Assembly: GCA_035549255.1 (NCBI GenBank)
Contig: DASZRD010000005.1
Location: 58 to 64,057 of the forward strand
DNA: 64,000 bases
Source of the DNA: Minisyncoccota bacterium
GTDB taxonomy: Bacteria; Patescibacteriota; Minisyncoccia; Phycocordibacterales; SBAW01
Direction: 5' to 3'
The notes below the pieces were generated by a model. It saw nothing but the letters and a program-made list of their open reading frames with translations. It was not told where the DNA came from and made no database searches. Of this stretch, positions 37,293 to 57,623 are shown piece by piece (positions within the stretch are counted from its first letter, which is position 1; each line of letters starts with the position of its first letter). Position numbers and translations under genes: made by a program.

Positions 37293-37309
37293 ATGTGACG
37301 AACGTAAAA

Positions 37310-37338
37310 ATCATACACATTTTTTGCTTATTTATCAA
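37310..37338 (-). promoter_or_regulatory. sigma70 promoter TTGATA-17-TATGAT for the intron-containing tRNA
   Basis: Minus-strand -35 at 37333..37338 and -10 at 37310..37315. The -35 hexamer is face-to-face with the -35 (TTATCA, 37332..37337) of the divergent HNH gene promoter (TGtTATATT extended -10 at 37352..37360). Confidence 0.5.
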
Positions 37339-37366: not shown

Positions 37367-37708
37367 ATGGAAAAGAAGTGCAAGATCCATGGCGTCACCA
37401 AGCACTTCCCTCGCCAGGATGGATCTTGGCGTTGCGGCAAATGCGCCTCGGCTTGGGTTATAAAAAACCGCCAAAATAAGAAAGCCCGGCTTGTAGCATT
37501 GTTTGGCGGCAGATGCATAGCCTGCGGATATAAAAAATACGCTGGCGCTCTAGACTTTCATCATATTGATCCAAATAAGAAATCTTTTGCATTGAGCGTA
37601 AAGGGTCTTTCGTACTCGTGGGAGAGTTTGGTAGCAGAGGCAAAGAAATGCGTTTTGGTTTGCAAGAATTGTCATACCGAAATTGAGGCAGGAATAATTA
37701 AGATATAG
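37367..37708 (+). CDS. HNH endonuclease (free-standing, candidate intron-associated homing endonuclease)
   Basis: HNH/His-Me finger: CGKC, CIACG zinc knuckles, LDFHHIDP, CKNCH. AT-rich codons; leaderless start at the predicted TSS. Confidence 0.8.
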   Translation: MEKKCKIHGVTKHFPRQDGSWRCGKCASAWVIKNRQNKKARLVALFGGRCIACGYKKYAGALDFHHIDPNKKSFALSVKGLSYSWESLVAEAKKCVLVCKNCHTEIEAGIIKI

Positions 37709-42767: not shown

Positions 42768-42862
42768 GAGTGATTAATTAATGTATAAAAGACCGGTACT
42801 GGGAGTATACCGAAAACCCTTTTCTCTGGGAATACCCCTTATACACCCCCGCTGCGCCTTCA

Positions 42863-42891
42863 TTGACACTACAGATTCCTCCCCACACAAT
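42863..42891 (+). promoter_or_regulatory. sigma70 promoter TTGACA-17-CACAAT; predicted leaderless mRNA for the hybrid kinase
   Basis: TTGACA 42863..42868, -10 at 42886..42891, ATG at 42898. Confidence 0.45.
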
Positions 42892-42897
42892 GTCCTC

Positions 42898-44982
42898 ATG
42901 CATAGGTTGCGGGAGGCAATCTCCTTACCTCGCACCCCGAGGGAACAATGGGGCGCCGTAGGCCTCCTTATAGCCTATTTTCTTGCGATCGGAATAGGAA
43001 GCTTTCTGCATCAGGGATTAGCGGTCATAAGCTTCGCTTCCGGCGTGGGCTTAGGCGCGCTCGTGCTCGAAGGGAGCTCTCTTTGGCCCGGCATCTACCT
43101 GGGGGCGCTTGCATGGTACGTCACCAGTGGCGCCGCACCGGTATATATAGCGGTATTGCCGGTCGCGCATACCGCTCAGGCGCTGATAGGTGCCTACCTG
43201 CTGCGCGCTCTGCGCTTTGACCCACTGCTGCGGCGCCTGCGCGACATGTTCTCTCTTATGGGCGTCGCCATTTTTGCCTCGGCGATCGTGCCGATACTGG
43301 GCACCGCGGGCGTCTGGGCGACGCGCCTCTTTATCGACCCTGCCTTTCCTCTTGCCGTAACATTCGGGTCGTGGTGGACCGGCATCATGACCAGCCTCCT
43401 TATCGTGGCGCCGCTTATCATCCGCTGGGGTGCGGAGCCCGTATTCAAGCGCTCCGCGCGGCAGATTTTGGAGCTCGTGTTCGTCTTTGCGGTGCTTATC
43501 GCCATCGACTGGATGCTGCTGTGGGTGGGGATATCCTCCGTCAACGGCGTCTCGCTCGTATACATTATGCTGCTGCCGTTCTTCTGGCTGGCCATCCGTA
43601 TCGGCCCGCGCTTCACGATCCTCGCGCTGTTCCTCACCACCTGCCTCGCCATGGCGGGAACCATGTACGGGCCGCACGCCGTCGCCGACCCGGTAGCGCT
43701 CGGCAACCGGCTCTTTCAGATCGAGATATTCATCAACATCATCGCGATCATCTTCTACATCATCGCGGCGCTGCAGGAAGAGCGCGTCGAGGCGACCAAA
43801 TCGCTCACCTCCTATATCGACAAATTAGAAGAGGCGCTCAACCGCCTGAGCCTCCAGGACCGCGCCAAGAGCGACTTCATTGCCATACTCGCGCATGAAT
43901 TGAGGAATCCTCTTGCGCCCGTCGTGAGCGCGCTAGAGTTCCTGCGCCTCGGCGCGGCGCGGTCGAGCGAGGAAACGGAGACGCTCGAGCTTATGGACGA
44001 CCGCCTCCGCACCGTGCAGCGCCTACTCGACGACCTGCTCGACGTCTCGCGCATCGAGCGCTCCAAGGTCGAGCTTCAGCGCGAGGCGGTTGACTTGCGC
44101 ACCATACTCGAGCGCTCGATCCGCTCGGTCGCCGCCAAGATCGAGGGCCGCCAGCAGCAGCTCGTCTTCGAAGTGCCGCAAGAGCCACTCGTCTTATTCG
44201 CCGATCCGGTGCGCATCGAGCAGGTCGTTTCCAACCTCCTTACCAATGCAAGCAAATTCACGCCCGAAAGCGGCAGGATCTCGGTTGTAGCGACCAGAGA
44301 GGGCGATGCCGCGGTGGTGAGAGTCAAAGATACCGGCATCGGCATTGACCCAGAGCTTATCCCCCGCATTTTCGAGCCGTTCCTCCAGCTTGAGACGGGC
44401 GAGCGCAAGAGCGATGGGCTCGGCATCGGGCTGTCGCTCACCAAGCGGCTTGTCGAGATGCATGCCGGCCAGATAGAGGTCAGGAGCGGCGGCATAGACC
44501 AGGGCAGCGAGTTTACGCTGCGCTTCCCTATCGCGAACGACACGCTCGTGGTGCCGGTGGCGCAGCCGGTCGCGAGCGCCCCCGCCGCCGCCACACCAAC
44601 TCGGGTGCTTGTCGTCGACGACAACGCGGCGGCGGGACGTGGGATCGGCAAGCTCCTCGCGATCAAGGGCTTTGACGTCGAGTATGCGCAGAGCGGCGCG
44701 CAGACGCGCGAGGTTCTTACGCTCAGGAAGCCGCGCGTCATCGTGCTCGATATCGGGCTTCCGGATACCGACGGCTATACGCTCGCGCGCATCTTGCGCG
44801 TGCAAGACAATTTCACGGGCGTACTGATCGCGCTCACAGGCTACGGCCAGCAGGAGGACAAGCAGCGCGCGCTTGAGGCGGGCTTCGACGCCCACCTCAC
44901 CAAGCCGGTCGGGATCGACGAGCTCGTGGTGGCGATCAACCAGGCATTGGCGCGCATAGAGCGTGCTACTATGGCAGAATGA
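42898..44982 (+). CDS. hybrid sensor histidine kinase/response regulator with an N-terminal polytopic membrane sensor domain
   Basis: About 8 TM helices, HisKA (FIAILAHELRNPL), HATPase_c (GLGIGLSL), C-terminal receiver (VLVVDDNAAAG ... LDIGLPDTDG). Start trimmed to ATG 42898 from the track's 42781. Confidence 0.85.
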   Translation: MHRLREAISLPRTPREQWGAVGLLIAYFLAIGIGSFLHQGLAVISFASGVGLGALVLEGSSLWPGIYLGALAWYVTSGAAPVYIAVLPVAHTAQALIGAYLLRALRFDPLLRRLRDMFSLMGVAIFASAIVPILGTAGVWATRLFIDPAFPLAVTFGSWWTGIMTSLLIVAPLIIRWGAEPVFKRSARQILELVFVFAVLIAIDWMLLWVGISSVNGVSLVYIMLLPFFWLAIRIGPRFTILALFLTTCLAMAGTMYGPHAVADPVALGNRLFQIEIFINIIAIIFYIIAALQEERVEATKSLTSYIDKLEEALNRLSLQDRAKSDFIAILAHELRNPLAPVVSALEFLRLGAARSSEETETLELMDDRLRTVQRLLDDLLDVSRIERSKVELQREAVDLRTILERSIRSVAAKIEGRQQQLVFEVPQEPLVLFADPVRIEQVVSNLLTNASKFTPESGRISVVATREGDAAVVRVKDTGIGIDPELIPRIFEPFLQLETGERKSDGLGIGLSLTKRLVEMHAGQIEVRSGGIDQGSEFTLRFPIANDTLVVPVAQPVASAPAAATPTRVLVVDDNAAAGRGIGKLLAIKGFDVEYAQSGAQTREVLTLRKPRVIVLDIGLPDTDGYTLARILRVQDNFTGVLIALTGYGQQEDKQRALEAGFDAHLTKPVGIDELVVAINQALARIERATMAE

Positions 44983-45749
44983 ACATCCTGCAGAGCTTTA
45001 TCCTCGGCATCGTCGAGGGCATCACCGAATTCCTCCCCATATCCTCGACGGGCCACCTTATTCTCGCAAGCTCGCTCCTCGGCGTCGCGCAGAGCGATTT
45101 CGTAAAGAGCTTCGAGATCATCATCCAGTTGGGCGCCATCGCCGCGGTCGCGGTGCTCTATTACAAGTCGTTTTTCAACCTCGAGATCCTCAAGCGCGTG
45201 ATCGTGGCATTCATCCCGACCGGTATCATCGGGCTGGCGCTCTACAAAGTCGCGAAGACGTACCTTATCGGCAACGAAGCGGTGGTGCTGTGGGCGCTCT
45301 TGCTCGGCGGCGCGGCGCTGATCGCCTTCGAGTACTTCCACCGCGAGCGCGAGTCCGCCCGCGCCGAAATCGCGCACATGTCGTACTCGCAGGCGCTCAT
45401 CATCGGCCTGTTCCAATCGCTCGCGATAGTACCAGGTGTCTCGCGCTCGGCCGCAAGCATCGTGGGAGGACTTCTCGTCGGCATGCGCAGAGTGGCTATC
45501 GTCGAGTTCTCTTTTCTGCTCGCGGTGCCGACGATGCTTGCGGCCAGCGGGCTCGACCTCCTCAAAAGCGCCTCGGCATTTTCTTCCGGAGACTTTCTCG
45601 TGCTCGCCGTCGGCTTCTTCACCGCGTTCCTGGTCGCGATCGCAAGCATCCGCTGGCTCCTCTCCTACGTGCGCGGGCACAATTTCGTGCCCTTCGGGCT
45701 CTACCGCATCGCGGTGGCGATACTCTTTTTCTTCCTCGTGCTGCGCTAG
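44979..45749 (+). CDS. uppP: undecaprenyl-diphosphate phosphatase
   Basis: BacA/UppP family (GITEFLPISSTGHL, SRSAASIVGGL). Confidence 0.95.
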   Translation: MNILQSFILGIVEGITEFLPISSTGHLILASSLLGVAQSDFVKSFEIIIQLGAIAAVAVLYYKSFFNLEILKRVIVAFIPTGIIGLALYKVAKTYLIGNEAVVLWALLLGGAALIAFEYFHRERESARAEIAHMSYSQALIIGLFQSLAIVPGVSRSAASIVGGLLVGMRRVAIVEFSFLLAVPTMLAASGLDLLKSASAFSSGDFLVLAVGFFTAFLVAIASIRWLLSYVRGHNFVPFGLYRIAVAILFFFLVLR

Positions 45750-46453
45750 GCCTGCTCTTCCTCGCCCGCTTCAGCCATGATGCGCTTGCGGATATAGTTG
45801 GCAGCACCGAATGCGACGACGAGCAGCACTACCACTGCCACGGTGATGAATACCTTGCCCAGCACGTTGTTGACCGAGACGTAGACATCGCCGAGGAAAT
45901 AGCCTATGGAGACGATCATGGCCGACCATATCGACTCGCCGACGATGTTGAGCCCGACGAATTTCCAGAACGGCACCCGGCTCATGCCAGCGGTAAACAG
46001 GGTAACGAGCGCGAAGCCCATGCCGTTGGTTAACTTTGAAATAAGGAGTATCGACGTATGATAGCGGCTGAAGATCCTCCTCACGCCGGCGATATGCTTG
46101 GGCGTGATGCTGAAGAAGCGCCCGAAGCGCGCAGCGAAGCTCACGCCCCAGCGATAGCCGATCCAATACCACAGCGCGTCGCCCAGGACCGCCGTTACCA
46201 CCAGGACCCCGTACACGATGAACGGGTCGAAGTATCCCAGCCGCGCGAGCACGCCGCACAGCATGCCCACCAGCGGCTGCCAAATAAGCGCCAGCGGAAC
46301 GATAATAAGATAGCGGTAGGCCAAAATAAGGCTCGTGATAGTCGCGATGGAAGCCACGGATACAGTATACTGGATATACCCGCGTATACGTAGGCTGTAT
46401 TCTATGCATTCAGAATTCAAAAAGTGGCGGCGGGGCGTGCCGAAGTCCCGCAT
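45746..46453 (-). CDS. DedA-family membrane protein (VTT/SNARE-associated domain)
   Basis: DedA motifs (GDALWYWIGYRWG, TNGMGFALVTLFTAGM). A GTG start at 46357 would give a more typical 203-aa product and remove the overlap with the divergent + gene. Confidence 0.75.
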   Translation of the reverse strand: MRDFGTPRRHFLNSECIEYSLRIRGYIQYTVSVASIATITSLILAYRYLIIVPLALIWQPLVGMLCGVLARLGYFDPFIVYGVLVVTAVLGDALWYWIGYRWGVSFAARFGRFFSITPKHIAGVRRIFSRYHTSILLISKLTNGMGFALVTLFTAGMSRVPFWKFVGLNIVGESIWSAMIVSIGYFLGDVYVSVNNVLGKVFITVAVVVLLVVAFGAANYIRKRIMAEAGEEEQA

Positions 46454-46904
46454 ACCTTATCCTTCCACTCGCGCCGACCGCGTCAAATACGCGCTTTGGC
46501 GCGTACTCGATCCCCTGCATCCTTACGCCCGCAACGCGCTCGCGGCAGTGGGCTACATGCGCAAGTACGACAAGTACCGCCCGGCGGGCCGGCAGCGCTT
46601 CGTGCTCGGCGCGCTCGCGCAGGCACAGACGCCTCAGACGCTTACCGAGTATTTGCTCTCGCAGGGGTTCGGCAATCACTTTGTTGCGCTTCGCGACAAA
46701 GGCGAGATCATCAGCCTGCGGCGCTGCCCGGATTTCACGCATCAATATCATATCCGCATTTTCGAAGACGGCGAGGTGCGTGGGCACTTCGAATATACGC
46801 CCGAGTGCCATCCTTTCCTCCACGACCGCGAAATAGGCTTCGAAGCTCGGCGCGAAGAGTTCCTCGCCCTGCTCGGCGACCGCATCATACCCCTGGAAGG
46901 ATAG
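46404..46904 (+). CDS. hypothetical protein (166 aa)
   Basis: GC3-biased ORF; start taken at the MHSEFKK ATG; no recognisable family. Confidence 0.5.
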   Translation: MHSEFKKWRRGVPKSRIPYPSTRADRVKYALWRVLDPLHPYARNALAAVGYMRKYDKYRPAGRQRFVLGALAQAQTPQTLTEYLLSQGFGNHFVALRDKGEIISLRRCPDFTHQYHIRIFEDGEVRGHFEYTPECHPFLHDREIGFEARREEFLALLGDRIIPLEG

Positions 46905-46963: not shown

Positions 46964-47317
46964 ATGAAGGGCTTCTCTAATTACGAGAGGGAGATTCGTC
47001 CGTGGGGGAACTTCGAACGCTTTACGCTCAATGAAAAATCGACGGTAAAGGTCATCACGGTGAATCCGAACGAGGAACTTTCGCTCCAGGCGCATGAACA
47101 TCGCGACGAGGAGTGGCACGTATTGAGCGGCTCGGGGGCAGTCGTGATCGGCGAGGAGCGCACCTCCGTCAAGCCCGGCGAAGACTTCTTCGTCGCGCGC
47201 GGCGTAAAGCACCGCGTTGCGGGCGGTCCGCGCGGGCTCGTGTTCCTTGAGGTGGCGCTGGGCGAATTTGACGAGAACGACATAACCCGCTTTGAGGATC
47301 GTTACGGGCGCACGTGA
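46964..47317 (+). CDS. cupin-type mannose-6-phosphate isomerase domain protein
   Basis: Type II PMI cupin signature ELSLQAHEHRDEEWHVLSGSG ... GVKHRV. Confidence 0.8.
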   Translation: MKGFSNYEREIRPWGNFERFTLNEKSTVKVITVNPNEELSLQAHEHRDEEWHVLSGSGAVVIGEERTSVKPGEDFFVARGVKHRVAGGPRGLVFLEVALGEFDENDITRFEDRYGRT

Positions 47318-47341
47318 ATCTCGCGGAGGTCTTGATATGCA

Positions 47342-48508
47342 ATGAACAACGCACTGGGAGCAGCAACATTGATAGCAGGGGTCGCGGTCGGCGGCATGGG
47401 CCTCGTCGCCGCCTTTATCGCGATTGCTTGCGGGATCGTGACGCTCTTGTGGTGGTGGCTGCGGGAACACAAGCGGCCGCTCTCGCTGCGCCGCTTCAAT
47501 CAGAACCCGATCCTCGGCCCTGACCCCAGCCACTGGTGGGAATCAGAGGCGGTATTCAATCCTGCGGCGTTCACCGCCGACGGGAAGGTGCACATCCTCT
47601 ACCGCGCCATGGGGCGCGACGGCATTTCGCGCATCGGCTACGCTTCGAGCGAAGACGGCGTTCGCTTTACCCGCTTGCCGTATCCGGTCTACTCGCCCGA
47701 CCGGGGCTTCGGGGTCCCGAGGACCGATCGCGTCTACGGGCCGCTCTCCTACAGCCAGACGCACTACGCCTCCGGCGGCGGATGGGGCGGCATCGAGGAC
47801 CCGCGGGCCATCAAGATCGACGGCAAGCTCTACATGAGCTTCGTCGCCTTCGACGGTTGGGGCTTCGTGCGCATGGCGCTTACCTCGATGCCGCTGCCGA
47901 AGTTCCTCAACAAAGACTGGCAATGGAAGAAAGCGGCGTTCCTTTCGCCGCCGAACGAGATCCACAAGAACTGGGTCCTCTTCCCCGAGCGCGTGGGCGG
48001 CAGGTATGCGGTGCTCCACAGCATTACGCCGAAGATCTCGATCGAGTACGTCGATTCGCTCGAGAGCTTCGACGACGAGGATACCTATATCCACTCTCCT
48101 GGCCGCTCGGGCGGCAGGCCCGGGGAGTGGGATAGCATCGTCCGCGGCGCGGGAGCACCGCCGATCAGGACATCGGAAGGATGGCTTCTGCTCTATCACG
48201 GCATGGACGCCAACAATCAGGGTATTGGCTACAAAGTGGGTGCTATGCTGCTCGACCTTGAAGACCCGACCCGCGTGCTCTATCGCAGCTCGCAGCCGAT
48301 ACTGGTCCCGAGCGAATGGTACGAGAATGACTGGAAGCCCGGCGTCATCATCGCGACCGGCGCGGTGGTTATCGGCGACGATCTGATGGTCTACTACGGC
48401 GGCGGCGACAAGTACGTCGCTGCTGCGCGCGCCAATCTGCGCGACTTCCTGCGAAGGCTCAAGTACGACGAGCAGGCCGAGCTCGAGCCGGTGAAGCTCC
48501 AGGTATAA
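47342..48508 (+). CDS. glycoside hydrolase family 130 protein (mannoside phosphorylase-like), membrane-anchored
   Basis: N-terminal TM; GH130 fold motifs (FNPAAF ... ILYRAMG ... GIEDPR ... LLYHG). Confidence 0.8.
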   Translation: MNNALGAATLIAGVAVGGMGLVAAFIAIACGIVTLLWWWLREHKRPLSLRRFNQNPILGPDPSHWWESEAVFNPAAFTADGKVHILYRAMGRDGISRIGYASSEDGVRFTRLPYPVYSPDRGFGVPRTDRVYGPLSYSQTHYASGGGWGGIEDPRAIKIDGKLYMSFVAFDGWGFVRMALTSMPLPKFLNKDWQWKKAAFLSPPNEIHKNWVLFPERVGGRYAVLHSITPKISIEYVDSLESFDDEDTYIHSPGRSGGRPGEWDSIVRGAGAPPIRTSEGWLLLYHGMDANNQGIGYKVGAMLLDLEDPTRVLYRSSQPILVPSEWYENDWKPGVIIATGAVVIGDDLMVYYGGGDKYVAAARANLRDFLRRLKYDEQAELEPVKLQV

Positions 48509-48520
48509 TACACGAGCAAT

Positions 48521-50422
48521 ATGTACGTTATCAGACGCAGCTCGCATAACCCCATCATCACGCCCATGGCCGACCGCCAATGGGAGGCGCGCGGCACGTT
48601 CAATCCCTCACCGGTCAAGAAAGGCCCGATCACGCACATCCTCTACCGCGCGCTCGGCCGCCCCGACGCGCTCATGACGCCCGCGGGTATCTCAACCATC
48701 GGAAAAGCACTCTCGATTGACGGCAAGCACTTCCAGAACCGCCGCCAATTCATCGTGCCGACCGAGGAGTGGGAAAAATTCGGCTGCGAGGACCCGCGCG
48801 CCACGTTCTTCGAAGGCAAATATTATATCTTTTATACCGCCCTCGGCGGTATGCCCTTCGGGGCGGGCAATATCAAGGTTGCGTGCGCGATATCGAAGGA
48901 TCTCGAGTCCATCGATGAGAAGCATCTCATCACCCCGTTTAACGCCAAGGCGATGGCGCTCTTCCCCGAGCGCGTGGGCGGCAAGATCACCGCGATCGTG
49001 ACCGCGCACACCGACGAGCCGCCCGCGAAGATTTCTATCGTGCAGTGCGACAAGATCGAAGATCTGTGGGATCTCGCCTTCTGGGAGAAGTGGCACGCCA
49101 ACCTCGACGATCACCGCATCAACCCCTTGCGGTTCGACCATGACCACGTCGAAGTCGGCTCCGCGCCGATCTGGACCAAGGACGGCTGGCTGATCTTCTA
49201 CTCGTACATCCAAAATTACTTCGGCGGCGGGGAGCGCGTGTTCGGCATCGAGGCGCTGCTGCTCGACCTCGACGACCCGCGGCAGATCGTCGGCCGCACG
49301 AAGGGCCCCATCATGGTCCCGGAAGAGATTTACGAGCGCTACGGCGAGGTCCCCAATATCGTCTTTCCTTCCGGCGCGCTGCTCAACAAGAACGGCCGCG
49401 TCGATATCTACTACGGCGGCGCGGACACGGTCTGCGCGCGCGCTTCTCTTAATCTCCCCGACCTCCTCTCGGCGATGATACCCTCGCGCCGCGAAGACTT
49501 GGCCGTCCGCGCCAAGGAGAATCCGATCCTCTCGCCTATCCCCGACCATGCGTGGGAGAGCAAAGAGGTCTTCAACGCCGCCGCGATCGACATCGACGAG
49601 ACCGTGCATATCCTCTATCGCGCGATCGGCGAAGACGGGGTTTCGCGCGTGGGCTATGCCACGAGCAAAAACGGCATCAAGATTACCGAGCGCCTCCCGG
49701 AGCCTATCTACGGGCCGCGCGCCGACTTCGAATCGCGCGGCTGCGAAGACCCTAGAGTGACCCGCATCGGCACTACTATATATATGGTCTATACCGCCTT
49801 CGACGGGAAGAACCCTTGGCGCGCGGCCATGACCTCGATATCGGTCAAGGACTTTCTCGCGCGCAAATGGGACAAATGGGCGCCGCCTCAGCTCATCACC
49901 CCCGACCCGGTGCAGGACAAGGACACGTGCATCTTCCCCGAGCAGATCGGCGGGCAGTACATGCTGCTCCACCGCATCGACCCCATGATGTGCGCGGATT
50001 TCCTCGATACGCTCGACTTTACGAAGAGCAGGCTCTCGCGCTGCATCGAGATTATGGGTCCGAGAGCGGGCATGTGGGATAGCAAAAAGATCGGCGTCGC
50101 CGGGCCGCCGATCGAGACTTCCAAAGGCTGGCTTCTGATCTACCACGGCGTATCGAAGACCGGCACCTACCGGCTCGGCGCAGTGCTGCTCGACGAGAAA
50201 AACCCCTCGATCGTGATCTCGCGCAGCGTCGACACCATCTTCGAGCCGATCGAGGAGTACGAGCGTACGGGCGTCGTCAACAACGCGGTCTTCTCCTGCG
50301 GCGCGGTCGTGCGCGGCGACACAATGTACGTCTATTACGGCGGTGCGGATACGGTACTTGGCGTCGCCAAGATCTCCCTCAAGAAACTCCTCAAGATTTT
50401 GCTCCCAGAGAACCTCGAGTAA
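48521..50422 (+). CDS. tandem GH130-domain protein (two mannoside-phosphorylase-like modules)
   Basis: Two repeats each carrying FNP..V..ILYRA.G, CEDPR, GWL.IYHG and YYGGAD blocks. Confidence 0.85.
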   Translation: MYVIRRSSHNPIITPMADRQWEARGTFNPSPVKKGPITHILYRALGRPDALMTPAGISTIGKALSIDGKHFQNRRQFIVPTEEWEKFGCEDPRATFFEGKYYIFYTALGGMPFGAGNIKVACAISKDLESIDEKHLITPFNAKAMALFPERVGGKITAIVTAHTDEPPAKISIVQCDKIEDLWDLAFWEKWHANLDDHRINPLRFDHDHVEVGSAPIWTKDGWLIFYSYIQNYFGGGERVFGIEALLLDLDDPRQIVGRTKGPIMVPEEIYERYGEVPNIVFPSGALLNKNGRVDIYYGGADTVCARASLNLPDLLSAMIPSRREDLAVRAKENPILSPIPDHAWESKEVFNAAAIDIDETVHILYRAIGEDGVSRVGYATSKNGIKITERLPEPIYGPRADFESRGCEDPRVTRIGTTIYMVYTAFDGKNPWRAAMTSISVKDFLARKWDKWAPPQLITPDPVQDKDTCIFPEQIGGQYMLLHRIDPMMCADFLDTLDFTKSRLSRCIEIMGPRAGMWDSKKIGVAGPPIETSKGWLLIYHGVSKTGTYRLGAVLLDEKNPSIVISRSVDTIFEPIEEYERTGVVNNAVFSCGAVVRGDTMYVYYGGADTVLGVAKISLKKLLKILLPENLE

Positions 50423-50453
50423 TCATCTGAGCACGTCGTCCACTCGCTAGATT

Positions 50454-51233
50454 ATGAACTTCAAGCCAAAACTCGTCGCGTTCGACCTCGACGGCACGCT
50501 TGCGGAGAGCAAGCGCCCGATTACCGCCGAGGTTGGCGAGCTCCTCACCGAATTGCTCCAGAAGCTGCCAGTCGCTATCATGTCGGGCGCCTCATTTGAG
50601 CAATTCCAGACGCAGGTCTTGCCGCAGATACCCGAGACGGCGCGCTTTGAGCGCCTCTACCTGTTCCCGACCAACGCCGCGCAGTGCTACATACACCGCG
50701 GATCAGGATGGCACCTCGCATATGATCGCTCGTTCAACAGCTTCGAGAAGGGGCGCATCATGCAGGCGCTCAAGGAGGCTCTCGCGGAGCAGGGCCTCGG
50801 GGACGAGTCGGCGCATCCGCAGGAATGGGGGCCGAGGATCGAGGATCGCGGCGCGCAGATCGCCTTCTCCGCGCTGGGGCAGAAAGCGCCCGTTGACCAA
50901 AAGCAGCTCTGGCATGACGCGCACGAATCCGAGCGCAAGGCGCTGCGCGACTCTCTTGCGCGGCGGCTACCCGACTTCTCGGTGCTCGAGGGCGGCCTCA
51001 CGACCGTCGATATCACCCAGAAGGGCGTCGACAAGGCCTACGGCATCCGCAAGCTCGTCGAGCTTGCCGACGTATCGGTTTCCGAGATGCTGTATGTCGG
51101 CGACGCGCTCGAAGAAGGCGGCAATGACTCGGTCGTCATCGATACGGGCGTACACACCCACGAGGTATTCGGCCCCGACGAGACTATTGCCCTCATCAAC
51201 AGCGTTCTTGACGCTCCGCGCGCCGGCCGTTAA
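50454..51233 (+). CDS. HAD-IIB phosphatase/mutase of the eukaryotic-type phosphomannomutase family
   Basis: FDLDGTL, VDITQKGVDKAYGI (like PMM DVFPKGWDKTY), GDALEEGGNDSVV (like PMM GD..GGNDYE). Confidence 0.75.
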   Translation: MNFKPKLVAFDLDGTLAESKRPITAEVGELLTELLQKLPVAIMSGASFEQFQTQVLPQIPETARFERLYLFPTNAAQCYIHRGSGWHLAYDRSFNSFEKGRIMQALKEALAEQGLGDESAHPQEWGPRIEDRGAQIAFSALGQKAPVDQKQLWHDAHESERKALRDSLARRLPDFSVLEGGLTTVDITQKGVDKAYGIRKLVELADVSVSEMLYVGDALEEGGNDSVVIDTGVHTHEVFGPDETIALINSVLDAPRAGR

Positions 51234-51236
51234 GTC

Positions 51237-53198
51237 TTAGATCGATCCGATCGCCTGGTTTAGCGTCACGACCTTGATGCCGCTTTGCTTAATGTAATTG
51301 ACCAATGACTGCAAGAAGCTCGGCGTAATCGCGTATTCATCTCCGCCGCTTTGGAGCACGTCGTGGATCTCGAGGATAAGGAGCCGCTTGTCGGCAACCG
51401 CCTGGTCGATCTCGGCTTCGAGCGAAGCAAGCGATGTCGATGAGTCAACACGAATGTCATCGAGGTTATAGCGCGGGGCCCCGGGCTCGTTGAGGCCGTA
51501 GTAGCTGCCGCGCGCGGCGCTGTAGCCGGCAGCAGCCACCATCGCGTCGGTCGAGGGGCTGCGGTCGCCATAGGGATACACGAAGGTAGTCGGCGTGATG
51601 CCCTGTTTTACAAGGTCGCTATACGAGCCGGCGATCTCCTTCTGCGCCTGCGCGGACGTCAGCGTGGTGAGGTACGGATGCGTCTGCGTGTGGCCGCCGA
51701 TCTCGAAGCCCTGCGACGCGAGGTTCTTGATCTGCGCCCAGGTCATATACCCGCTGTCGCCGCTCCCCGGCTCGGAGGTAATGATGTAGAAGCTCGCTCT
51801 CATGCCCGCGGCATTGAGTATCGGCAGCGCGTTCTGATACTGCGACAAGTCGCCGTCATCAAAGGTAAGTGCCACCATGCCGCTCGGGAGCGGGTTCTGG
51901 GGGTTGGCGGTGAGCGAAGCATTATCGATCGTAAGCGTGCCGACTGCCGCGATCGTGTGAAGCACCGTGAGCGATACCGCGCCCGTTGGCACGGTGACCT
52001 GCGCGGTGAGCGTCTGCCACGTGCCATTGGTTGCCGGAGCATCAGCGACCCAATCGTACTGATACGTGCCATCACTCATGAGGTACTCGACCGTAACATT
52101 GTCTTTGAGCGTCGAATTGTAATCGTCGGTGAACGTATAGATCGTGTGGCTCGATACCGGCACATGGTCGAAGTCCCACTTGGCGTCGCCCGAGGAGTAT
52201 TTGGTGATAGCCACCTGCGCCGCCTTGCCGCCCCCCTTGCCGGCGACCGGATAGGTAAACTTTACGTTCATCGTGCCCCAGTAATCGGCATTCCATCCGG
52301 TCGGGTTATTGGCCGTGCCCGCTTCAAGGTTGCCGTTAGCGATGAGGTTGGGACCGTTCGGCTGAGTCGGCGGAGTCGGAGGCGCCGGCTGCACGACGGT
52401 AACCGTGACGCTTGAGGTCGCAACACCCGCAGGATTCGTTGCAGTAAGCGTGTACGTCGTGGTCTGGGTTGGCGTTACCTGTTTGCTCGCGCCCGTCACG
52501 ATACCGACATTCTGGTCGATGCTGGTCGAAGACGCGTTGCTGACATTCCACGAGAGCGTGACCTGCTGGCCCGCAACGATAGTGCTGCTTGATGTGACAA
52601 ACGAGTTGATGAGGGGCTTCTGCTGCACCGGCGGCGGAGGCGGCGTAGAAGTGCTGGCCGCCTCGGTAAGCGAGTACTGATCGACTTCGACGTAACCAAT
52701 ACTCTTGAGCTCATGCGCGAAGCGCACCTTGGTGTAACCGCTCGGGATCGTGACCGTCGCGCTGAATTGCTGCCAGGCGCCCGTGCCCGAGACCGTACCG
52801 AGCGTCTGGGTAACGGAGCTGCCGTTATTCTTCGTGAAGATCGCAATCACATTCACCGACACGTTCGAGAGCGAGTAGCCCGAGAAGAGGTACGACTTAC
52901 CCGCTGCGACGCTCGCGGCGGGAGACTGCCAGTACGCGTCGCCGCTGTTCTTGTACTTGGTGATCTGCGCCTTGACGGCGTTCCCGCTGAATCCCTTGAC
53001 CGGATAATTGAATGAGACGCTGATATTAGAGCCGCTATGCTCGGTATTCCATCCCGAGGTGCCGTTGTCGAGAGAAGGGTTGGCGATAAGATTGGGTCCG
53101 CCCGCTATCGCGGTCCCGCCTATAAAAAGCACCGCTGCCGCGCATGCGGCGATAAGGATTCCTGCGGAACGTCCTGGATTTTTCATACTGCTATGCAT
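51237..53198 (-). CDS. secreted multidomain polysaccharide deacetylase (CBM-like and Ig-like domains plus C-terminal NodB domain)
   Basis: Signal anchor, two CBM4/9-like modules (NPSLDNGTSGWN, NGNLEAGTANNPTGWN), Ig-like domains with PPPP linkers, NodB motifs (ALTFDDGD, EIGGHTQTHP). Start trimmed to ATG 53198; the track ORF runs into the upstream gene. Confidence 0.8.
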   Translation of the reverse strand: MHSSMKNPGRSAGILIAACAAAVLFIGGTAIAGGPNLIANPSLDNGTSGWNTEHSGSNISVSFNYPVKGFSGNAVKAQITKYKNSGDAYWQSPAASVAAGKSYLFSGYSLSNVSVNVIAIFTKNNGSSVTQTLGTVSGTGAWQQFSATVTIPSGYTKVRFAHELKSIGYVEVDQYSLTEAASTSTPPPPPVQQKPLINSFVTSSSTIVAGQQVTLSWNVSNASSTSIDQNVGIVTGASKQVTPTQTTTYTLTATNPAGVATSSVTVTVVQPAPPTPPTQPNGPNLIANGNLEAGTANNPTGWNADYWGTMNVKFTYPVAGKGGGKAAQVAITKYSSGDAKWDFDHVPVSSHTIYTFTDDYNSTLKDNVTVEYLMSDGTYQYDWVADAPATNGTWQTLTAQVTVPTGAVSLTVLHTIAAVGTLTIDNASLTANPQNPLPSGMVALTFDDGDLSQYQNALPILNAAGMRASFYIITSEPGSGDSGYMTWAQIKNLASQGFEIGGHTQTHPYLTTLTSAQAQKEIAGSYSDLVKQGITPTTFVYPYGDRSPSTDAMVAAAGYSAARGSYYGLNEPGAPRYNLDDIRVDSSTSLASLEAEIDQAVADKRLLILEIHDVLQSGGDEYAITPSFLQSLVNYIKQSGIKVVTLNQAIGSI

Positions 53199-53232
53199 AC
53201 GTATTAATAATGATTTGATAACGCTGACAGGA

Positions 53233-54522
53233 CTAATCTCTCCCAGTACCCGGCTCAACCGTGTAGGACTTGAGCGTATGCGGTGAAGCGTACGGGTTCG
53301 GGTCCCACGTCTCGAAGCCGACCGTACCCGAATTCTGCAGGCTCGGGAGATCGGCGGCGAGCACCACTTGCCCGCCGATGAGGCACGACAACCGGCTGCC
53401 TTCGATATCGGCGCCCATATCGACACCCTCCCACGGGGAATCCTGGCGTACGGGAAGACTCGGCGATTGAGATATGAATTGCGAGACGCCGTTTGATACC
53501 TGATAAATCTGCACAGTCTGGCCGTAGCGCGAGAACGCGCACGAGGCGAAGTTGCCATCGTCGCGCATGCGCACCAGACGCGAGAAGACGCTTGTGAGGC
53601 CCCAGTCGACCGTCGTATCGACTTTATAATCGACCCAGTCCTTGCCGCCGCGGAACATGGTCATCGAGCCGGTGGTGCTCGCGGCGGCGGAGGGGCCGGT
53701 CTCGATAGAGCCGCTCTCCCCCGGCCCGAAGAAGCCGAAATACGTAAACCACTTGTCGAGAGAATCCGACGACGGAGAGAAGGTATATGGAAGCGTCGCG
53801 GGCGTGGCGGTCGCGAAGGGGTCGAAGGGCTGCGGCCCGGTCGCGACCGGCGGGTACCAGGGGGAATGAGGCGCATCCGAAGAGACCAGGCGTACTTCGT
53901 CGATATAGGCAGACCCCGGATTCTCCGCGCTCACGCTGAACCCAGTGAGCTCTTGGGGGGTCGTGGAACCGACGGAGAAATTGGCGAGCGGGACGGTAAT
54001 CTGCTGCCACTCCCCGGGCGCCAGCGCGCCCGACGCGGCATACCACGAGAGGGACTGGCGGCCGATCGAATTGCCCTGCGCGTCGTAGATATCGAGATAA
54101 AGGTCCCCCACTGCCGCATCGGGGCGGACATACAGCGAGATCGCGCTATACGGCGCCGCATCGGCCGCTGGCCCCTGCATACCGACGCTCCCGCCGGCCG
54201 CGTCGAAGGCCGCCTTGATCGACGCCGGCCCGGCGGCATACTCATCAGTCGCGCGCCAATTGGCGCTCGCGTGCCAAGTCCAGCTATCGTAGCGCAGCGG
54301 CAGCGCATCCTGGTAAAAATAGCCCGAATTAAGCGATACAGCGCCTGAGAGAAGCGATGAGGCGAAAGGATCTCGGCCGCTCTGGTACGAAACGCCCAGC
54401 GCCGCGAGCAAGTCCCCCGGCTGCGTGCGCACATAAAAGAGCGAGAGCGCCGAGGCGATGCCCGCGAGCGCCACGGCGAAGAATGCGCACCAGACTATTC
54501 TCCAAAAGCGGTCGACAATCAT
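53233..54522 (-). CDS. hypothetical membrane-anchored extracytoplasmic protein, between the synthase and the secreted deacetylase
   Basis: N-terminal TM then a 400-aa beta-rich domain; 4-nt overlap with the upstream gene, so likely co-transcribed. Confidence 0.65.
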   Translation of the reverse strand: MIVDRFWRIVWCAFFAVALAGIASALSLFYVRTQPGDLLAALGVSYQSGRDPFASSLLSGAVSLNSGYFYQDALPLRYDSWTWHASANWRATDEYAAGPASIKAAFDAAGGSVGMQGPAADAAPYSAISLYVRPDAAVGDLYLDIYDAQGNSIGRQSLSWYAASGALAPGEWQQITVPLANFSVGSTTPQELTGFSVSAENPGSAYIDEVRLVSSDAPHSPWYPPVATGPQPFDPFATATPATLPYTFSPSSDSLDKWFTYFGFFGPGESGSIETGPSAAASTTGSMTMFRGGKDWVDYKVDTTVDWGLTSVFSRLVRMRDDGNFASCAFSRYGQTVQIYQVSNGVSQFISQSPSLPVRQDSPWEGVDMGADIEGSRLSCLIGGQVVLAADLPSLQNSGTVGFETWDPNPYASPHTLKSYTVEPGTGRD

Positions 54523-57083
54523 AATAAGGTAGGCCGGGCCTCGGTCGGCGCAATCGAAGCGGAGGTCTCGGCGGTACGCGCCTCATCCGGAATAAGCGAG
54601 GCGTGCAGAGCGCCCGGAAGCTGCGGGGAGACCTCCGCGATCGTAAGCGGGGACGGGACCGGCACGAGGATGTCGCTTTGATAGAACCGCTTCGTCTCCC
54701 CCGCCTTGCGGAACTTATTCCAGCCCGCGCCGCTGCCCTCGATCGCGCGGATGACGCCGCGCATGACACTAAAGTAGAGAAGCTGCCGGTAGACCACCCG
54801 CTGCAGGGGCACGCCGATCATGAGGCGGCCCGCGCCGGGCTCCTTCCAGACGCCCCAGGCGGCATAGGCCATGTCGAAGGCGGTAAATAAGAGGAACGGC
54901 ACGAGAAGCGTGCGCATCTGGCCGAAAAGGAGGCCGAATACGAACGCCGCGTCAGTGAAGGGGTACGCGAGCGGCAGCAGGATATTGTAGATAAACACGT
55001 TGGGAAGCACGATAAGGGTCATGGGCGAGAACGGCCGCTCGAGCGCGACGCGCTTGTGCTTCCAGACGCATTGCATGGTGCCATAGACCCAGCGGAAGCG
55101 CTGCTTGAGGAAATTCTTTACCGTATGCGGCGTCTCGGTGTAGGCGATGGCCTGCGGCTCATAGACGACGCGCTTTCCCGAGCGCAGCACGGTGAGCGTC
55201 ATGTCCTGGTCCTCGACCAGCGTATCGGTCGAAAAGCCACCGAATTGCATGAGATACGACTTGCGCCACGCGCCCGCGGGCCCGGGCACGATGCCGACCG
55301 CGCCGATAGTCGAGAACGCGCGCTTGTCGATGTTCTGGCCGATCGCGTATTCGAGGGTCTGGAAAATGTCGAGCATGCGGCGGCTGCCCGTGGTGCGGAC
55401 CTTCCCCGCGACCGCGCCCACCCGCGGGTCGCTGAAGTGCTTTACGAAGTGCGCGAGCGCCCGGCGCTCAAGCACAGCGTCGGCGTCGAGAACCGCGATG
55501 ATATCGTACTTCGCGTGCTTGATGCCGATATTGAGCGCGCGGGCCTTGCCGCCGTTCTCCAGGCTCATGAGGCAGATATCGTCGTGCGGATATGCCTCGA
55601 TGACGTTGCGGACTTCCTGCGCGGTTTTGTCATATGAGCCATCGTCGAGCACGATAATCTCGCGCTTGGGGTACGAGCTGCGAATGACGCTCTCGACGGT
55701 CGCGGCGATATTCTCCTCCTCGTTATAGGCGGGGATAAGCACGGATACGCCTGCGACCTCGCGCACCTCGGGAATGATCTCCTTATAGAGGCCGCGCATG
55801 CGGCCGTACATGATGAGCGAGATGAGCGACAGCGAGCGGACGCCGACAAGCGCGAGCGTGAAGATCGCGAGCCCCATAAGGCCGCGGTAGATGATCGGGA
55901 AGAAATATATATAGAGGCTGCGCATGGCTTCGCCCAGCCCCAAGAGCGCGATGACCGCCCATGCGCTCCAGCCCGCGGCCGCCCCAGGGGCGGCCGCGGG
56001 CGCCGCTGCGAGCGCGGACTCGAGCGACATCGAGTGGATAAGGTTGCGGGTCGCCTGGTCGGCCTTGCCGGCGCGGGACGGGTCGGGGTTGCCCGAATCG
56101 ACAAGCTTGTTGGCGGTCTGAAAGTTGAGCAGCGCCGCGCGCGTCGCTGCGTCGAATACGCCGGTAAGCGCGTACGGGTCGAGGTACTTCTGCATATAAA
56201 GGAACCATTGGAGCTGCGATACCGCGCCGCCGGTTGTGGCATCAGTCGCGCCGAGCGCAAGCGTCGAAGGAAGCGAGATCGTCGTAGGCGGCGTCAGGAG
56301 CGAGGAGAGCGGCACGACGCTGTAGCCGTGGTCTTTGAGATAGCCGAGAATCGCAGGCAGGGCCTTGGCGGTCGCCACGTCCTCATGAAGGAGGATGATG
56401 TGGCCGTTGGGTTTCTCCGCAAGCGCGCGGTCAAGGTCAGCGACCATTTGCGGCGTCGTAGTCGCATACCACTTGGTCGGATCGATGTCGGCACCCACCG
56501 GCAGATACCCGAGCTCGAGGGACCACAGGAGGTCTTTGGGCGGCGGCACATAAGGGTTGAGGGTCGGGTCGGACCCGACGCCGGAGAGATACGGCGGACG
56601 GTAGAAGAGCGGCTGCTGCCCCGTGATCTGCGAGATAAGATACCCGGTCGAGTTGAGCTCGAGCGCAAGGCGCTTGTAGGAAGACTGCGCGTCCCGGGCA
56701 TGCGTGAAGGAAAGGTTCCCGACCGTAAAGCCGTCATCGCTCGCCTCCTTGACCAAGTCGGGCCGCGTGAGCACATCCTTTCCTATATAGAAGAACGTTG
56801 CCGGCACACCCTCCTTCGATAGTTCGTTGAAGAAGAGCTGCGACGCATCGGGCGTCGGACCGTCGTCTATCGTGAGCGCGACCTTGTCGGCATTCGCCGC
56901 GCTGAAGTAGTAGTGATAGCGCTCGGCGATATCCGCATACGGAAGCGAGGCGCGCCCGGCGGTAGTGCTCGCGAGGCCGAACAAAAAAATAAGAACGAAC
57001 GAAAGGAGAAAGAATATGAAAAAGACCGCAGCGGCCCTGAAATATAGTTTGCGTCGTTTAGAGGTATCGAAAAATACAGGCAT
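54519..57083 (-). CDS. fused polysaccharide deacetylase (NodB) / peptidoglycan-binding domain / processive family-2 glycosyltransferase (PgaC/IcaA-like synthase)
   Basis: N-terminal TM; NodB (ALTIDDGPT, HIILLHED); PG_binding_1-like (AVSQLQWFLYMQKYL...GVFDAATRAALLNFQ); TM block; GT2 (VLIPAYNEEENI, DADAVLE, QRFRWVYG = QxxRW); C-terminal TMs. Confidence 0.85.
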   Translation of the reverse strand: MPVFFDTSKRRKLYFRAAAVFFIFFLLSFVLIFLFGLASTTAGRASLPYADIAERYHYYFSAANADKVALTIDDGPTPDASQLFFNELSKEGVPATFFYIGKDVLTRPDLVKEASDDGFTVGNLSFTHARDAQSSYKRLALELNSTGYLISQITGQQPLFYRPPYLSGVGSDPTLNPYVPPPKDLLWSLELGYLPVGADIDPTKWYATTTPQMVADLDRALAEKPNGHIILLHEDVATAKALPAILGYLKDHGYSVVPLSSLLTPPTTISLPSTLALGATDATTGGAVSQLQWFLYMQKYLDPYALTGVFDAATRAALLNFQTANKLVDSGNPDPSRAGKADQATRNLIHSMSLESALAAAPAAAPGAAAGWSAWAVIALLGLGEAMRSLYIYFFPIIYRGLMGLAIFTLALVGVRSLSLISLIMYGRMRGLYKEIIPEVREVAGVSVLIPAYNEEENIAATVESVIRSSYPKREIIVLDDGSYDKTAQEVRNVIEAYPHDDICLMSLENGGKARALNIGIKHAKYDIIAVLDADAVLERRALAHFVKHFSDPRVGAVAGKVRTTGSRRMLDIFQTLEYAIGQNIDKRAFSTIGAVGIVPGPAGAWRKSYLMQFGGFSTDTLVEDQDMTLTVLRSGKRVVYEPQAIAYTETPHTVKNFLKQRFRWVYGTMQCVWKHKRVALERPFSPMTLIVLPNVFIYNILLPLAYPFTDAAFVFGLLFGQMRTLLVPFLLFTAFDMAYAAWGVWKEPGAGRLMIGVPLQRVVYRQLLYFSVMRGVIRAIEGSGAGWNKFRKAGETKRFYQSDILVPVPSPLTIAEVSPQLPGALHASLIPDEARTAETSASIAPTEARPTLL

Positions 57084-57245
57084 ACAGCCGAGACAGCATT
57101 GTTGCTGCGGCTGGTTCCCCCGGTTATGCGGTTATTGCGCACGCATACTGGATGATGCGCGCACACCAAAAGTATAGCGCATATCGCAGAGGTGTATAGC
57201 GTAAACCGGTGTGGAAATCAGAATCGTATATATTGGAGTACAGAT

Positions 57246-57325
57246 ATAAAAAAGAACAAGGTCGAGGCGGGCCCAAAACCCTGGGAAACCAGCCATAAGC
57301 TGGAGCTTTTGGGCCCACCTCGACC
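57246..57325 (-). promoter_or_regulatory. intrinsic-terminator-like hairpin inside the 5' leader of the synthase gene (candidate attenuator/riboswitch expression platform)
   Basis: 19-bp inverted repeat GGTCGAGGCGGGCCCAAAA / TTTTGGGCCCACCTCGACC (one mismatch) at 57260..57278 and 57307..57325, followed on the minus strand by TTGTTCTTTTTTAT. Lies about 165 nt upstream of the synthase ATG and is preceded by a second hairpin plus U-run (57359..57390). Confidence 0.45.
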
Positions 57326-57623
57326 TCGTATCTTTTGGAAGAACGCCTTCCCGTAAAAACAAATCGAAGCTCTTCTTCGGAGTAAAGAGCTTCGCCGCGC
57401 ATACTACTCGAGGCAGATTTCTTGTATAGATTGTCAGCGCAAAATTTTCGTCGCCGAATGTCGCGTGAGAGTTGCGAAAATAAAAATTTGTATCGCGCTA
57501 TCGCACGTCTCTTGTAATTTGAAATGCGCGTGCTATTTTGCCTCCTACCAAAGCAGCTCTGGGAAACTGCCGTGGGACGTGTTTTTCTCTTGTCCTTTAT
57601 TCATTAGGTATTAACCAGAGCTT

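Follow-up and report, generated by a model that had tools for sequence, protein, structure and literature searches.

A conserved trio of GH130 modules in bacteria of the candidate phyla radiation and archaea may turn over beta-1,2-mannosides around mannose-1-phosphate

A four-gene operon at positions 46964 to 51233 on the + strand of a 64,000-nucleotide (nt) stretch of Minisyncoccota bacterium DNA (GenBank assembly GCA_035549255.1, contig DASZRD010000005.1; here, the window) encodes a cupin, two proteins that together carry three glycoside hydrolase (GH) family 130 modules, and a HAD-type mutase. The GH130 modules, here A, B, and C, make up a trio, with A followed by the tandem protein B-C, that is ancient and conserved across bacteria of the candidate phyla radiation (CPR) and archaea. 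Only C retains the Arg, Lys, and His that bind phosphate. We read the operon, with a confidence that we would put at the midpoint, as a cytoplasmic unit that is centered on mannose-1-phosphate (Man1P) and turns over beta-1,2-mannosides with one phosphorylase and two noncanonical paralogs.

A preliminary description of this DNA, made from its letters alone, had listed four consecutive + strand genes with their families, and open reading frames (ORFs) at the same coordinates and Pfam matches well beyond chance bear this out. The first gene (46964 to 47317; PF01050, 4.6e-22) encodes a stand-alone 117-amino-acid (aa) cupin of the type II mannose-6-phosphate isomerase (PMI) family, in which the motif singled out earlier, SLQAHEHRDEEWHV, is present. 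Module A follows as a 388-aa protein with an N-terminal anchor and a noncanonical catalytic domain (47342 to 48508; PF04041, 8.8e-38). The third gene encodes the 633-aa tandem protein (48521 to 50422; PF04041, 1.7e-96, in two stretches), in which B covers residues 1 to ~320 (48521 to 49480) and C covers residues ~330 to 633 (49508 to 50422). The last gene (50454 to 51233; PF03332, 6.5e-10) encodes a 259-aa HAD-IIB phosphohexomutase of the family that holds eukaryotic phosphomannomutase (PMM) and the Lactococcus lactis alpha-phosphoglucomutase (alpha-PGM). The genes are separated by only 24, 12, and 31 nt, and the gene directly 3' of the operon is convergent. A promoter and terminator scan of the operon returned no more matches than shuffled expectation and was uninformative.

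All three GH130 assignments are genuine. PF04041 (cutoff, 26) gives 130.5 bits for A and, over two stretches, 323.4 bits for B-C. On the NCBIfam model for beta-1,2-mannobiose phosphorylase (NF052550; cutoff, 450), B-C reaches 443.7 bits, summed over its two modules, and A reaches 213.5 bits; by these scores, both are close relatives of that enzyme and not equivalogs. An AlphaFold2 model of B-C (633 residues) has a predicted local distance difference test score (pLDDT) of 94.2 and a predicted TM-score (pTM) of 0.91. Both halves superpose on Teth514_1788 with a target TM-score of 0.9, and a Foldseek search with the model gave target TM-scores of 0.88 to 0.91 to 9FJ8, 9GPH, and 7FIP, with one propeller per match. 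The fold modeled for both B and C is the GH130 five-bladed beta-propeller. By comparison, the target TM-score to MTP4 (6Q50), a member of glycosyltransferase (GT) family GT108, was 0.67, with 16% identity.

The same Foldseek search returned no solved structure with two GH130 propellers in one chain. Because such pLDDT and pTM values would be hard to reach otherwise, the two propellers appear to be confidently placed relative to each other. Teth514_1788 is a native dimer (PMC12814180), and from the model we infer that B-C is a covalent hetero-dimer, a rigid chain of two propellers.

Residue calls were anchored on alignments to Uhgb_MP and covered 49 A, 53 B, and 53 C orthologs, the three modules of the window, and references. 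In Uhgb_MP numbering, D104 is the GH130 proton donor, R168 and H231 are phosphate ligands, of which R168 has been termed a determinant of phosphorylase versus hydrolase activity, and a third conserved basic residue of GH130 phosphorylases occupies the K212 position (PMC7660257, PMC4599007, PMC12814180). Beta-1,2 specificity is marked in the +1 subsite by a Glu at the Y103 position and a Lys at the R150 position (PMC4599007, PMC7660257). The proton-donor Asp is present in all modules (D153 in A, D91 in B, and D410 in C) and is conserved in 50/50 A, 54/54 B, and 53/54 C sequences, the remaining C sequence being gapped. The Glu/Lys pairs are E152/K209 in A, E90/K143 in B, and E409/K467 in C, each invariant or nearly so, and the closest solved relatives of all three modules are the beta-1,2-mannoside phosphorylases Teth514_1788 and Teth514_1789. 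These determinants point to beta-1,2 linkages for all three modules, and not to the beta-1,4 or N-glycan substrates envisaged in the preliminary description.

Judged by its residues, module C carries everything that defines a beta-1,2-mannoside phosphorylase and is probably a canonical one. It matches Teth514_1788 and Teth514_1789 at 7e-61 and 9e-61, respectively, and its fold matches 9FJ8 and 9GPH with a Foldseek target TM-score of 0.9. R367, E409/D410, K467, R485, K523, H542, Y550, and D610 are invariant, and the phosphate ligands among them (R485, K523, and H542) are retained in every complete C ortholog.

Module B is a predicted nonphosphorolytic paralog. Across orthologs, it retains R43, E90-D91, K143, and D302 at 100%. 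The "LHR" segment, however, reads TAHTD in B, with an unvarying T164 and D165 and with no Arg or Lys whichever alignment register is used; H209 stands at the Uhgb_MP K212 position and S228 stands at the His position. This loss of all three phosphate ligands is common to all orthologs, in CPR and archaea alike. B has also acquired D165, D208, E211, F241, and E244, none of which varies among 46 diverse tandem proteins from both groups. A conversion from GH130 phosphorylase to beta-1,2-mannosidase has been described in which the basic ligands are lost, carboxylates are gained, and the Lys is kept (PMC4599007), and the pattern in B matches it.

The Bacteroides GH130_3 beta-1,2-mannosidases BT3780 and BACOVA_03624 resemble B in keeping the Asp, the neighboring Glu, and the beta-1,2 Lys while replacing the three basic phosphate ligands with carboxylates (PMC4599007). 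Coordinate arithmetic, the only basis for this comparison, puts E211 of B on or beside BT3780 Glu268 and makes D165 and E211 plausible counterparts of the BT3780 Glu227/Glu268 pair. Unlike B, however, these enzymes are secreted by way of signal peptides, consist of a single module, and are distant relatives: B matches Teth514_1788 at 4e-40 and the Bacteroides hydrolases only at ~1e-12 to 1e-15. Because B is far closer to the Thermoanaerobacter phosphorylases than to the Bacteroides hydrolases, a hydrolase-type conversion of B would be an independent one, and it would be cytoplasmic. B shares the absence of the basic ligands with the BT3780-type class, has no signal peptide, and scores 177.5 bits on NF058598 against 550; at most, it would work like the GH130_3 beta-1,2-mannosidases, and it is not a member of their class.

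Module A is remodeled in a different way. Its best solved relative is also Teth514_1788 (6e-51), and R88, E152-D153, K209, and D356 are retained at 100%. In the phosphate site of the window's A, the Arg is replaced by S227 and the Lys by V267, while the His (H286) is kept. Both the Arg and the Lys are missing in 44/50 A orthologs; 6/50 keep both, and 4 of those 6 have lost the His. A also has invariants of its own: K332 and G334, which belong to the -1 cradle region, plus an SGGGxGG insertion (residues 144 to 150) ahead of the catalytic motif. We considered K332 as a relocated stand-in for the lost Arg and rejected the idea because this Lys is invariant also in the A orthologs that keep the Arg.

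Loss of the phosphate ligands would also be expected if A and/or B were catalytically dead, serving as lectin-like or scaffold partners that position mannan or regulate C in a hetero-oligomer, with C as the sole enzyme. The apparently rigid fusion of B to C mimics the homodimer of characterized relatives, single-chain A-B-C fusions occur, and the phosphate-site residues of A differ between clades, as they would under relaxed constraint. We nevertheless think this unlikely. In CPR and archaea alike, A and B show 100% conservation of the proton-donor Asp, its Glu neighbor, and every -1/+1 sugar ligand, and the former phosphate site of B has acquired new invariant carboxylates and a Thr-Asp pair, just as the -1 cradle of A has acquired a new invariant Lys and Gly. 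From these patterns, both active sites look remodeled rather than decayed.

The N-terminal hydrophobic anchor of A (residues ~4 to 40; nt ~47351 to 47461) is real, as had been described, but the surface scavenging that was proposed with it is not borne out. Lys/Arg residues number 0 ahead of the helix and 5 in the 15 residues that follow it, a bias that makes a cytoplasmic catalytic domain probable under the positive-inside rule. The same anchor is found on A in an Adlerbacteria-type clade, and a Lys-rich tail of 30 to 70 residues takes its place in Nomura-, Zambryski-, and other Paceibacteria-type clades. Microgenomates- and Saccharimonadia-type A proteins instead have an extra N-terminal domain that resembles GH130 weakly and in degenerate form (E = 8e-5, which falls short of the Pfam cutoff), and archaeal A proteins and single-chain fusions have nothing at this position. 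None of these alternative N termini (anchor, Lys-rich tail, or extra domain) looks like a secretion signal, and B-C has no hydrophobic N terminus. On the charge bias of the anchor and on what replaces it in orthologs, we set aside scavenging by A at the cell surface as unlikely.

Family models place the HAD protein with PMM, as had been proposed, and not with the Cof phosphatases: it scores 39.6 bits on PF03332 (cutoff, 22.4) and 61.8 bits on the HAD-IIB model TIGR01484 (cutoff, 41.8) but only 42.3 bits on the Cof model TIGR00099 (cutoff, 137). The name PMM holds at this level, whereas the nearest characterized relative is an alpha-PGM. All solved relatives are PMM or alpha-PGM HADs, of which the best is L. 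lactis PgmH (PDB 4BND; 3.8e-41), followed by PMMs at 1e-13 to 1e-7. The DxDxT nucleophile motif, the Lys, and the GDx(4)GGND motif are kept, and D11, D13, T15, K194, D217, N224, and D225 are conserved in 17 colocalized orthologs. PgmH and the eukaryotic PMM1 and PMM2 thus resemble the HAD protein in class (HAD-IIB), in the PMM-type cap, and in all catalytic motifs. Unlike the role proposed here, PgmH is a glucose-phosphate mutase, which Nogly et al. reportedly found in 2013 to be specific for alpha-glucose-1-phosphate. Activity on glucose phosphates as well as mannose phosphates is common among PMM-type HADs (PMC8808168).

The cupin scores 78.8 bits on PF01050 (cutoff, 23.6), with the whole model covered; on the bifunctional ManC/PMI model TIGR01479, its match is confined to the C-terminal PMI domain. 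At least 90% of 22 colocalized orthologs share Q42, H44, E49, and H83, and Gln-His-Glu-His is the ligand set of PMI zinc sites.

The preliminary description had assembled these genes into an ATP-free catabolic route to fructose-6-phosphate (Fru6P) that was fed by three GH130 phosphorylases, including one at the cell surface, that differ in the beta-mannosides or N-glycans they take. The route itself (GH130 to Man1P, PMM to mannose-6-phosphate [Man6P], and PMI to Fru6P) is chemically coherent. PMI and PMM colocalize with the GH130 genes in ~20 related loci and share the operon here, all three modules belong to GH130 and have the catalytic Asp, and the same catabolic logic has been described for Bacteroides GH130 systems (PMC4264767). 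Residue analysis nonetheless largely contradicts the model of three phosphorylases, which we consider very improbable. The phosphate site is intact only in C; across orthologs, B is without all three of its ligands and A generally without two. Of the losses that the preliminary description had named as counting against its GH130 reading, that of the phosphate-binding residues applies to two of the three modules and that of the catalytic Asp to none. Phosphorylases need cytoplasmic phosphate (Pi), and no characterized one is secreted (PMC7660257); the anchor charges predict a cytoplasmic domain for A, with polybasic tails as substitutes in other clades, and the specificity residues are of the beta-1,2 type.

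To survey the locus, we scanned one genome per species and clustered the flanking ORFs of 55 loci and the window. Tandem B-C was found in 55 loci, nearly all of them in Patescibacteria, together with an Atabeyarchaeia chromosome and another archaeal metagenome-assembled genome (MAG). Protein searches added thousands more relatives, including some in Nitrososphaeria, Caldarchaeales, and Aigarchaeota. A lies immediately upstream of B-C in ~50/55 loci, and in some bacteria the modules are fused into a single A-B-C chain; in four such proteins of ~1000 aa (P0155, P0158, P0159, and P0161), module order equals gene order and each module bears the signature of its class. A Candidatus Paceibacterota MAG encodes a protein 100% identical to the window's B-C under the name "hypothetical protein," and trio proteins are labeled "hypothetical" in nearly all cases, or otherwise as generic glycosidases. 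A crude neighbor-joining tree recovered B as monophyletic, apart from one stray, and did not cleanly separate A from C; we make no claim as to the order of duplication.

The only nonhousekeeping families that co-occur with the trio are the cupin (21 loci), the HAD protein (17 loci), and an RfaE-II-like nucleotidyltransferase (13 loci). The flanks of the 55 loci and the window contain no transporter or secreted hydrolase family that co-occurs with it. The three fusion loci examined all adjoin ManC or a bifunctional ManC-PMI, plus a sugar-nucleotide dehydrogenase and a GT2 protein, with the PMI domain fused to ManC in two of them. In Nitrososphaerota loci, PGK, GAPDH, and NTP_transferase genes lie within 4 kb of the trio. 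The common denominator of these neighbors is Man1P. Clade-specific neighbors (UppP/DedA, GT4/PAP2, PMT_2/GT2, and NTP_transferase-CDP-alcohol transferase) are too poorly conserved to count as parts of the system. The remainder of the window holds typical CPR housekeeping genes; Pfam annotation of ~30 further genes in it revealed no ManC, sugar kinase, or sugar importer, and an RfaE-II-like enzyme was sought there without success.

Under the reading that we hold at even strength, the cupin and the HAD protein would interconvert Fru6P, Man6P, and Man1P, and C would reversibly interconvert (Man)n plus Pi and (Man)n-1 plus alpha-Man1P. B would work without phosphate on the same chain as C, most likely as a beta-1,2-mannosidase-like or transglycosylating partner. 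A would sit on the cytoplasmic side of the membrane, where a transmembrane helix would hold it here and, in other clades, a polybasic tail, and would carry out a third, noncanonical step, such as priming or trimming. The substrate would be an endogenous, mannogen-like pool of beta-1,2-mannooligosaccharides that is built from Fru6P and returned to it.

Could the substrate instead be imported? In that case, beta-1,2-mannooligosaccharides from a host or from necromass would be broken down in the cytoplasm, with C as the phosphorylase, A and B as hydrolase-like helpers for ends or branches beyond the reach of C, and Man1P passing into glycolysis by way of PMM and PMI. CPR bacteria are scavengers or epibionts (PMC7143001), which suits this view. 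So do the canonical signature of C, which resembles Thermoanaerobacter enzymes from an uptake cluster, the hydrolase-like substitutions in B, and a sugar-binding ABC protein ~4 kb away at one fusion locus. We give this alternative about one chance in four; much stands against it. Across the 55 loci, the trio has neither an importer nor a secreted GH as a conserved companion, the recurrent neighbors are biosynthetic (ManC, the dehydrogenase, and GT2), and the trio is retained in many tiny genomes and in archaea even though beta-1,2-mannans are rare in the environment. One complete CPR genome has two GH130 proteins among its five GHs, none of them with a signal peptide, and has neither conventional sugar importers nor a glucokinase (PMC7143001); because these are absent, free mannose released by hydrolysis would be wasted there as a source of energy. 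Because no importer or secreted hydrolase accompanies the trio and CPR genomes of this type are without sugar importers, the substrate is most likely endogenous. We thus favor, by a modest margin, an endogenous mannogen-like pool over the catabolism of exogenous mannan, and the synthetic direction, which the preliminary description had raised as an alternative, is at least as plausible as catabolism.

A further possibility is that the operon is an accessory to an envelope glycoconjugate, either by supplying or buffering Man1P for nucleotide-mannose, a form of salvage that has been proposed for Thermoanaerobacter, or through A and B as beta-1,2-mannosyltransferases that build a membrane-proximal glycan. 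ManC adjoins GH130 in Thermoanaerobacter and in all three fusion loci, and a nucleotidyltransferase adjoins the trio in 13 CPR loci. Also in keeping with this possibility are the membrane tether of A, UppP and DedA upstream of the operon here, and PMT_2 and GT2 upstream of the trio in L025. Beta-1,2 GH130 enzymes even have weak GDP-mannose (GDP-Man) transferase activity (PMC12814180). The physiological relevance of this weak activity is doubted by its authors, however, and removal of the R168-equivalent Arg abolishes it in Uhgb_MS (PMC12814180). A and B are both without that Arg, which speaks against their being simple GDP-Man transferases. In addition, neither ManC nor any other sugar nucleotidyltransferase was found in the 64-kb window, and the envelope-gene neighbors vary by clade and may reflect only local synteny. 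We regard an envelope role as decidedly unlikely.

Among the nearest known systems is that of Thermoanaerobacter sp. X-514, in which Teth514_1788 and Teth514_1789 (GH130_6) are a 1,2-beta-oligomannan phosphorylase and a beta-1,2-mannobiose phosphorylase, respectively. These are the best sequence and structure matches to the modules of the trio and have every catalytic, phosphate-binding, and +1 subsite residue in common with C. There, too, two adjacent paralogs divide the labor, and a Man1P-using ManC is encoded next door (PMC4264767). Both of those paralogs, however, are canonical single-module phosphorylases clustered with an ABC importer and a GH5, whereas here there are three modules, two with a remodeled phosphate site, two fused, and one membrane tethered, with PMI and PMM in place of ManC and with no importer.

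Another parallel, one of system logic, is the mannogen of Leishmania, a cytoplasmic beta-1,2-mannan that exchanges with Man1P, as is proposed here. Its GT108 enzymes MTP1-7 are strict GDP-Man mannosyltransferases and mannogen phosphorylases with the same fold and the same proposed mechanism. These paralogs descended from one bacterial ancestor and split into strict transferases and phosphorylases (PMC10913872), that is, along the same phosphorolytic/nonphosphorolytic line and partly at the Arg position that is lost in A and B. The trio nevertheless belongs to GH130, with the 16% identity to MTP4 given above. The residue at the switch position of nonphosphorolytic GT108 enzymes is His, while Ser or Thr is found here; in B, moreover, the other two ligands are gone as well and carboxylates have appeared, a pattern that looks more like a hydrolase.

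Taken further, this parallel leads to a broader and more tentative proposal, to which we assign somewhat under a third of our belief: that CPR bacteria and several archaeal lineages hold a cytoplasmic beta-1,2-mannan reserve that is made and consumed without nucleotide sugars, directly from Fru6P by way of PMI, PMM, and reverse phosphorolysis by C, with A, membrane tethered or with a polybasic tail, and a hydrolase-like B as partners that do not use phosphate.

Several points weigh against our preferred account of an endogenous, Man1P-centered unit. To our knowledge, beta-1,2-mannan has never been reported in CPR. The direction of a reaction is not readable from sequence, the topology of A comes from the positive-inside rule alone, and all three basic residues are kept in 2/50 A orthologs. 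The mannose-phosphate activity of the HAD protein is inferred from its family and context, with an alpha-PGM as the nearest characterized relative. The equation of B carboxylates with the BT3780 Glu pair stems from coordinate arithmetic, not superposition, and is suggestive only; the pTM of the B-C model is likewise an indirect measure of interdomain packing. Our view is limited to 64 kb of the genome, and importers, kinases, or ManC could lie elsewhere. Lastly, GT108 active-site residues alone do not decide phosphorylase activity (PMC10913872), and because they proved indecisive there, the residue-based call of A and B as nonphosphorolytic could be wrong.

Most work on GH130 has dealt with gut bacteria, in which the enzymes are secreted mannosidases or phosphorylases of a single module, and the searchable literature holds only passing mentions of it in CPR and archaea. 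The families themselves are known, but the trio with its two remodeled subfamilies, the B-C fusion, and the Man1P-centered context appears to be undescribed. It is conserved over a large part of CPR and in Asgard and Thermoproteota archaea, where it takes up ~3 kb of very small genomes. A and B offer two natural experiments in turning a phosphorylase site to other chemistry, to which B-C adds a covalent hetero-dimer. For CPR, the trio suggests a testable internal carbon buffer without ATP or nucleotide cost, in organisms that are unable to make nucleotides. If the reserve proposal is true, this would be the first storage-carbohydrate system proposed for these minimal cells, A and B would be two undescribed GH130 subfamilies, and their divergence would be an independent bacterial and archaeal counterpart of the GT108 paralog split. 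Even plain catabolism would correct the expectation of three phosphorylases, one at the cell surface.

Two further observations concern related loci. The RfaE-II-like neighbor is a 159-aa protein with a cytidylyltransferase fold, encoded directly upstream of HAD-cupin-A or of A in 13 loci (L010, L017, L018, L021, L022, L024, L026, L030, L031, L045, L046, L051, and L052). Its best match is RfaE domain II, heptose-1-phosphate adenylyltransferase (78.8 bits; cutoff, 181.5), and it matches PDB 3GLV at 1e-12. Loci without PMI and PMM also have it next to the trio, a hint of an unusual donor of the NDP-mannose type. In the Saccharimonadia-type locus L025 (1736 to 8928), a PMT_2 GT-C membrane glycosyltransferase and the GT2 precede the trio, A bears an extra degenerate GH130-like N-terminal domain, and B-C is followed by a fourth GH130 module with a phosphate-site signature of its own (T, V, G, C, and W).

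Directly upstream of the operon in the window are the undecaprenyl-diphosphatase UppP/BacA (44979 to 45749, +) and, back to back with it, a DedA/UptA-like putative undecaprenyl-phosphate transporter (45746 to 46453, -); DedA occurs near the trio in only a few Adlerbacteria-type loci. A MASE1 hybrid histidine kinase-receiver (42781 to 44982) overlaps the UppP start by 4 nt. A 189-aa ORF (46335 to 46904, +), set 59 nt ahead of the cupin, overlaps the start of DedA, which is on the other strand. This ORF has no Pfam or NCBIfam match and may truly begin further downstream; L001 is the only locus that conserves it (86%).

On the 3' side, positions 51237 to 62411 encode three large envelope proteins, each with a polysaccharide deacetylase domain. 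The 773-aa protein also has a CBM4_9 domain, the 854-aa protein combines the deacetylase with PG_binding and a chitin-synthase-like GT2, and the 1595-aa protein has PG_binding along with Ig, MBG, and HYR repeats. The three genes have the look of a locus that synthesizes and deacetylates a surface polymer of the N-acetylglucosamine type; this locus is kept beside the operon only in the closest relative, L001.

Elsewhere in the window, and notably for a small CPR genome, two MreB-family paralogs lie ~4 kb apart on the - strand (24468 to 25538 and 29920 to 30930), the second identified by N-terminal similarity. In a low-GC patch at 36 to 38 kb, Rfam detects a group I intron (37082 to 37272, - strand, within 37046 to 37312) at 50.1 bits, against a gathering score of 50. 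Its flanks read as two halves of a tRNA gene, with the D-arm GTAGCTCAATGGTAGAGC and the T-arm GGTTCGAGTCC, and crude in silico splicing yields ARAGORN tRNA calls of unsettled isotype. A small Cys-rich ORF (37367 to 37708, +) adjoins the intron.

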